DNA of 64,000 nucleotides, from the sequence record PQ666539; one strand, 5' to 3'. The notes beneath the pieces were generated by a model that saw nothing but the letters and a program-made list of their open reading frames with translations, was not told the DNA's origin and made no database searches. Below are positions 16,361 through 17,113 of this stretch, one piece after another (within the stretch, counting starts at the first letter, position 1; every line of letters begins with the position of its first letter). Made by a program: the position numbers and the translations under genes. This DNA is from Shigella phage sb1.

Positions 16361-17113
16361 ATGGCAAACATTATTCGTTGTAAATTACCAGATGGTGTTC
16401 ATCGTTTTAAACCATTTACGGTAGAAGATTATCGAGATTTTTTGTTAGTTCGAAACGATATAGAACATCGGTCACCACAAGAACAAAAAGAAATAATTGC
16501 TGATTTAATTGCTGATTATTTTGGAGACTATCCGAAGACTTGGCAACCATTTATATTTTTGCAGGTATTTGTAGGGTCAATAGGTAAAACTAAAGTACCG
16601 GTCACATTTGTATGTCCAAAATGTAAAAAAGAAAAGACAGTTCCATTTGAAATATATCAAAAATAATTAAAGGAACCTGTTTTTGATGTAGCTAATGTTA
16701 AAATTAAATTAAAGTTTCCTTCTGAGTTTTATGAAAATAAAGCAAAGATGATTACTGAAAATATTCATTCTGTCCAAGTAGATGAAATGTGGTACGATTG
16801 GAAGGAAATTAGCGAATCGAGTCAAATAGAACTTGTTGATGCCATCGAGATAGAAACATTAGAAAAAATTCTCTATGCAATGAATCCTATTAATTTAACG
16901 TTGCATATGTCGTGTTGTAATAAGTATGTAAAAAAATACACTGATATAGTAGATGTGTTTAAGCTATTAGTTAATCCAGATGAGATATTTACTTTTTATC
17001 AAATTAATCACACACTCGTAAAAAGTAATTATAGCTTAAATTCAATAATGAAAATGATTCCTGCCGAGCGCGGATTCGTATTAAAACTGATTGAGAAGGA
17101 TAAACAACAATGA
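16361..17113 (+). pseudogene. 51: baseplate hub assembly protein gp51, interrupted by in-frame TAA at 16664..16666
   Basis: ORFs 16361..16666 and 16748..17113 are in the same frame and together match gp51 (~249 aa); late promoter at 16336..16343. Confidence 0.85.

Follow-up and report, generated by a model that had tools for sequence, protein, structure and literature searches.

Gene 51 of phage T4 lies between gene 26, which is encoded on the opposite strand, and gene 27, and it is annotated in the T4 record (NC_000866) as 'baseplate hub assembly protein'. Its product, gp51, is needed for baseplate assembly, yet is missing from the particle (PMC3004832). Stop codons within phage genes are familiar from the classical amber and ochre conditional-lethal morphogenesis mutants of T4, strains with a single defined nonsense mutation or a few of them. 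They are also found in recoded phages, which reassign TAG or TGA and thus contain in-frame stops inside conserved genes. Base substitutions can also arise without any biology of the phage: the oxidative 8-oxoG artefact of sequencing libraries produces C>A/G>T transversions at low allele fraction, with a bias in read-1/read-2 orientation, and favours CCG>CAG (Costello et al. 2013; PMC3616734).

The copy of gene 51 in the 64,000-nt stretch of DNA analysed here (the window) resembles each of these systems in part. Like the classical T4 mutants, it is an essential tail-assembly gene with a single-base nonsense change; the window, however, is not T4 and has 25 internal stops in 16 genes. As in recoded phages, stops stand in frame inside conserved genes, but all three stop codons occur there, several different residues are replaced, and TAA is the main terminator. 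As in the artefact described by Costello et al., the changes are exclusively G>T/C>A, show a non-biological distribution, and are indifferent to coding consequence; unlike that artefact, they stand in the consensus and have no context preference.

Gene 51 and its in-frame TAA

A sequence-only reading had identified the interrupted gene as gene 51, and alignment to T4, synteny, and the Pfam family PF12322 all bore this out. The window follows the T4 gene order, with 25-26 on the minus strand and then 51-27-28-29-48-54 on the plus strand, and the frame occupies the conserved position of gp51, divergent from gene 26 and immediately upstream of gene 27 (Table 1). The matching open reading frame (ORF) of T4 is gene 51 itself. 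When codon 102 was read as glutamate, the product matched PF12322 (T4_baseplate) over profile positions 1-219/219, scoring 186.6 bits where the cut-off is 24.5. A 901-base segment around the TAA had matches in 507 phage records, nearly all of them Tequatrovirus, with a top identity of 98.7%; the phage genome in the window is likewise a Tequatrovirus (T4-like).

The reading had also placed a TAA in this frame and had the frame continue beyond it, and both statements were accurate, as were its translations on either side of the stop. From the ATG at 16361, the frame is open past the TAA to a TGA at 17111-17113, giving 250 sense positions with the TAA read through. In place of the uninterrupted frame of ~249 codons of gp51, there is thus a frame broken at codon 102, which the automatic ORF list cut into 16361-16666 (101 aa) and 16748-17113 (121 aa). 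The sequence at the stop is GTT CCA TTT GAA ATA TAT CAA AAA TAA TTA AAG GAA CCT GTT. A three-way DNA alignment of the window with T4 (NC_000866) and phage FriedrichMiescher gave GAA at codon 102 in both phages, and the three closest genomes, Ec_YwIITB1, Ec_MI-02, and Shigella phage sb2, have G at 16664. The reference alignment that the reading had proposed therefore agrees with the glutamate that it gave for T4: the codon is GAA in T4 and in four aligned close relatives.

Table 1. Positions of gene 51, its neighbors, and the substitutions discussed in the text (window coordinates).
Feature	Position	Strand	Details
Gene 26	15684..16310	-	Flanks gene 51
Gene 51 orthologue (baseplate hub assembly protein/chaperone)	16361..17113	+	~98% DNA identity to T4 gene 51; synteny 25-26-51-27; PF12322 E=6.4e-55
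N-terminal fragment, 101 aa, made if the TAA is real	16361..16666	+	PF12322 profile positions 1-103/219 only
In-frame TAA, codon 102	16664..16666	+	G>T at 16664 (first codon base), from conserved GAA (Glu102)
Second private G>T in gene 51	16874..16874	+	GAT>TAT, Asp172Tyr; mutation class shared with the TAA
Native stop of gene 51, TAA to CAA	17108..17110	+	T>C at 17108; from alignment to T4
Gene 27	from 17110	+	Flanks gene 51
TAA in gene 23 (major capsid), codon 274	6672..6674		TTA>TAA via T>A at 6673
Set of 280 private G>T/C>A substitutions	1..64000	.	About one per 224 bp; with one T>A, gives 25 internal stops in 16/41 mapped genes
Internal stops per gene			22 (x2), 23, uvsW.1, uvsY, 51, 27 (x2), 29, 48, one alt paralogue, alc (x2), rnlA (x3), nrdA (x2), 32, 34 (x4), 35, 36

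The TAA allele is, as far as the collections searched can tell, unique to the window sequence. A 69-nt segment containing it was matched at 100% in 0/491 phage records, the best match (98.6%) having one mismatch, and an exact 32-mer with the TAA was absent from IMG/VR, where the GAA version occurred in four contigs. Exact look-up of the 101-aa fragment returned one match, Logan contig SRR25011136_54076 (1,038 bases, of which 1-1038 correspond to window 15626-16663). We rejected this contig as a second instance of the TAA: it belongs to another T4-like strain (98.65% identity, 14 mismatches), and since it ends one base before the TAA position, its gene is cut rather than stopped. That it ends exactly before the TAA/GAA position could be chance or a branch of the de Bruijn graph in that sample. 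Exact look-ups of gp26 and of the truncated gp27 from the window returned no match, so these searches supplied no clean twin for direct comparison.

Besides the GAA>TAA change, the window copy differs from T4 gene 51 by Asp172Tyr and by the conversion of the native stop to CAA, which adds one Gln. The frame is one codon longer than that of T4 for this reason, and its TGA overlaps the gene 27 ATG (as ATGA). The 69-nt segment around 17108-17113 had no exact match among 499 phage records. Because T>C is a transition, the change at 17108 falls outside the G:C>T:A class described below, and the CAA may be a harmless natural variant.

A layer of G>T and C>A substitutions across the window

We aligned the whole window with the three closest genomes (62,321 columns compared) and scored as private each position at which these three agree and the window differs. 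This yielded 966 window-private substitutions, of which 280 were G>T (137) or C>A (143), amounting to ~1.2% of all G:C pairs. When the same test was applied to each relative, only 60-81 G:C>T:A changes were found, whereas private transitions were alike in all four genomes (510-564). C>A/G>T was the only anomalous one of the six substitution classes; the others looked like normal purified divergence. The rate was uniform along the 64 kb, with G>T/C>A changes in every 4-kb bin (9-31 per bin).

The two orientations were balanced and interleaved. No strand-coordinated runs of G>T versus C>A, which would be a sign of single damaged strands or single reads, were detected (runs test z=-1.07), and same-strand bias was not significant at any spacing. 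Trinucleotide context had no effect on the rate (16 contexts, heterogeneity p=0.10, rates 0.4-1.8%); the lowest rate was that of GGC (0.39%), and CGG stood at 0.96% (7/730) against 1.21% overall. The window had neither private insertions (0) nor private deletions (0).

Within coding frames, the G>T/C>A changes comprised 28 synonymous, 201 missense, and 28 nonsense substitutions. The expectation for random change, obtained by making the G>T/C>A change in turn at each G or C of these frames, was 23.6, 203.4, and 30.0, and the observed counts were not different from it (chi-square p=0.61). Expressed as proportions, 9.2% synonymous, 79.1% missense, and 11.7% nonsense were predicted, and 10.9%, 78.2%, and 10.9% were observed. 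The changes fell 97/95/65 on codon positions 1/2/3. Private transitions were distributed very differently: 83/38/360, with position 3 accounting for 360/481, and 368 synonymous against 110 missense, like the relatives. Potential nonsense sites were changed at 1.10%, compared with 1.18% for sites overall; the nonsense rate equals the background, and therefore stops in essential genes were not purged at all. The G>T/C>A changes never went through a round of phage growth. If the window also contains ~60 natural G:C>T:A changes, a number like that of the relatives, the 28 synonymous changes are somewhat below the prediction of a simple mixture; this does not alter the conclusion on the G>T/C>A layer.

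The effect on the genes is widespread. We placed 41 annotated genes of the relatives on the window and found 25 internal stops in 16 of them, 24 of these stops lying in 15 genes other than gene 51 (window 5025-56374). The interrupted genes include essential ones (22, 23, 27, 29, 48, 51, 32, 34, 35, and 36), and the ORF list alone already showed gene 51's essential neighbors 27, 29, 48, 22, and 23 in pieces. The genome as written cannot be viable, because nonsense codons stand in its major capsid, scaffold, hub, tube-junction, ssDNA-binding, and long-tail-fibre genes. Apart from that in gene 23 (Table 1), every internal stop in the mapped genes resulted from G>T or C>A, and the A:T>T:A class as a whole was not elevated relative to the relatives. 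TAA, TAG, and TGA all occurred, in place of GAA, GAG, GGA, TCA, TAC, and TTA codons. None of the 41 mapped genes had a frameshift: every length was divisible by three, and the normal terminators were kept except in gene 51. TAA terminates 31/41 of these genes. A check for a suppressor tRNA found no tRNA gene of any kind in the 64-kb window; the usual T4 tRNA cluster presumably falls outside it. The window has two tandem alt-like ADP-ribosyltransferase genes (22980-27095), as do its closest relatives, and one of them carries a C>A-derived TAG at codon 178.

Against this background, gene 51 is unexceptional. It has 29 possible G>T/C>A nonsense sites, at which 0.35 stops are expected at the background rate, and 2.7 G>T/C>A changes are expected in the gene overall. 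The probability of at least one stop is 0.30, so the gene 51 stop is what the background predicts. Thus, of the interruption that the sequence-only reading singled out, the stop itself is present, but its standing as a noteworthy event specific to gene 51 is lost among ~280 like changes across the window and 25 stops in 16 genes.

Origin of the TAA

Very probably, the TAA is one of the random, unselected G:C>T:A substitutions spread over the window, and reflects either an error in the record or damage to the sequenced DNA that was left unrepaired or was copied wrongly. We infer that the G:C>T:A layer is non-biological from the observed substitution class and rate, the even spread along the window, the indifference to coding consequence, and the absence of the layer from relatives. 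Such a layer would overlie an otherwise normal, distinct Tequatrovirus genome. Candidate causes would be oxidative or other guanine damage fixed by amplification or by very low coverage, a fault of the instrument or pipeline, or computational corruption. As a specific cause, the classic 8-oxoG shearing artefact fits poorly. The restriction to C>A/G>T transversions agrees with it, this being the only class in excess (280 vs 60-81); the CCG>CAG (CGG>CTG) enrichment does not appear in the window (7/730 at CGG, 0.96% vs 1.21%; p=0.10 over 16 contexts), and the changes are in the consensus.

One specific alternative is that the changes are base-calling errors. T-even phages contain glucosyl-hydroxymethylcytosine. 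Hypermodified cytosines are reported to degrade nanopore base-calling severely (PMC12838424), so miscalls in long reads might have reached the consensus as C>A/G>T. The restriction of the changes to G:C pairs, and to one direction, is in keeping with this origin. The absence of private indels, of frameshifts (0/41 genes), and of context dependence (p=0.10) is not. Base-calling errors of a systematic kind should vary with sequence context and be accompanied by indels, and we consider this origin improbable.

A second alternative holds that the damage was real. Guanines of a real genome, now dead, might have been damaged chemically or enzymatically, for example by oxidative inactivation or by a host defence acting on guanine, with G>T fixed on copying before sequencing. 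G:C>T:A is the classic outcome of 8-oxoguanine:A pairing (PMC3616734), which would account for the exclusive direction of the changes, and a genome that never replicated afterwards would show the total lack of selection seen here. However, damage to ~1% of guanines would be an extreme rate, and the interleaving of G>T and C>A without strand blocks is a poor fit to the copying of one damaged strand. There was no preference for GG or CGG, and a genome that does not replicate would not ordinarily attain the coverage needed for assembly. We regard this origin as very unlikely. The related proposal that the ~1% G>T load is real, that the guanines of a T4-like genome were damaged in the sample and copied once before sequencing, and that the gene 51 ochre is a scar of this event has a slighter chance still. 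If it were true, the window would represent a dead genome with hypermutation comparable to that which APOBEC causes in retroviral DNA.

It is extremely unlikely that the TAA marks a genuine ochre (conditional-lethal) gene 51 mutant, a laboratory or natural phage grown on a suppressor host. On hosts without a suppressor, such a mutant would make the 101-aa fragment and would form no baseplate hubs. In favour of this reading, a change of one base (GAA>TAA) puts a stop into an essential gene whose product is needed for baseplate assembly (PMC3004832), and the rest of the gene 51 frame is intact. In a nonsense strain, however, the nonsense codons number one or a few and the genome is intact elsewhere, and the window has 25 stops in 16/41 genes. 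A single suppressor could not rescue the 24 further internal stops, which are of all three kinds and lie in 15 other genes. In addition, the genome is neither T4 nor any known laboratory strain (identity to the records matched did not exceed 98.7%), and the change itself belongs to an unselected class that affects 1.2% of G:C pairs.

Reassignment of the stop codon, or programmed read-through, by which TAA would be decoded as an amino acid and gene 51 left intact, has a negligible probability. The frame does run on cleanly past the stop. Nonetheless, recoding is excluded by the mixture of stop types, the several residues replaced, and the continued use of TAA to end 31/41 mapped genes: internal TAA, TAG, and TGA stand for Glu, Ser, Gly, Tyr, and Leu codons rather than one stop for one residue, and TAA is not avoided as a terminator. 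The 64-kb window is also without tRNA genes, and relatives with ~97% identity, whose genetic code is standard, have GAA at codon 102. Gene decay (pseudogenisation) was rejected, since a strong synonymous bias persists in all other substitution classes and only C>A/G>T is unselected, as was translational bypass or frameshifting at AAA-TAA, since the sequence after the stop continues in the zero frame and stops of this class occur in 15 other genes.

Consequences for the record and its closest relatives

Read as one of the window-wide G:C>T:A substitutions, the TAA is no part of the biology of gene 51. In the real phage, codon 102 is almost certainly GAA (Glu102) and gene 51 intact, and resequencing would most probably show GAA there. 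All of the in-frame stops in the window, and many of its odd amino acid changes, are best read as the same G:C>T:A noise and not as separate findings. An annotation or protein set derived from the window sequence would hold truncated or mutated proteins, and the record, if it is a public submission, needs resequencing or polishing.

Without the noise, the phage represents an ordinary but distinct Tequatrovirus lineage. Within gene 29, a patch at 19060-19350 is dense in private, mostly synonymous transitions. Because no phage record is >95.6% identical over window 18980-19480, we interpret the patch as a lineage-specific mosaic segment of this tail-length/hub gene; a 37-mer from it was absent from viral, genome, and metagenome contigs. 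Elsewhere in the window, inh is followed directly by uvsW (11832-12563), and the segE homing-endonuclease gene that intervenes in T4 is absent, likewise in the closest relatives.

The closest records have irregularities of their own. Ec_YwIITB1 (PQ356294) has a split major capsid gene and a split hoc, and sb2 (PQ666540) has a split gene 34; Ec_YwIITB1 and Ec_MI-02 have 46-52 private indel columns. These broken genes and indels suggest that the relatives' records contain assembly errors, of another kind than the changes in the window.
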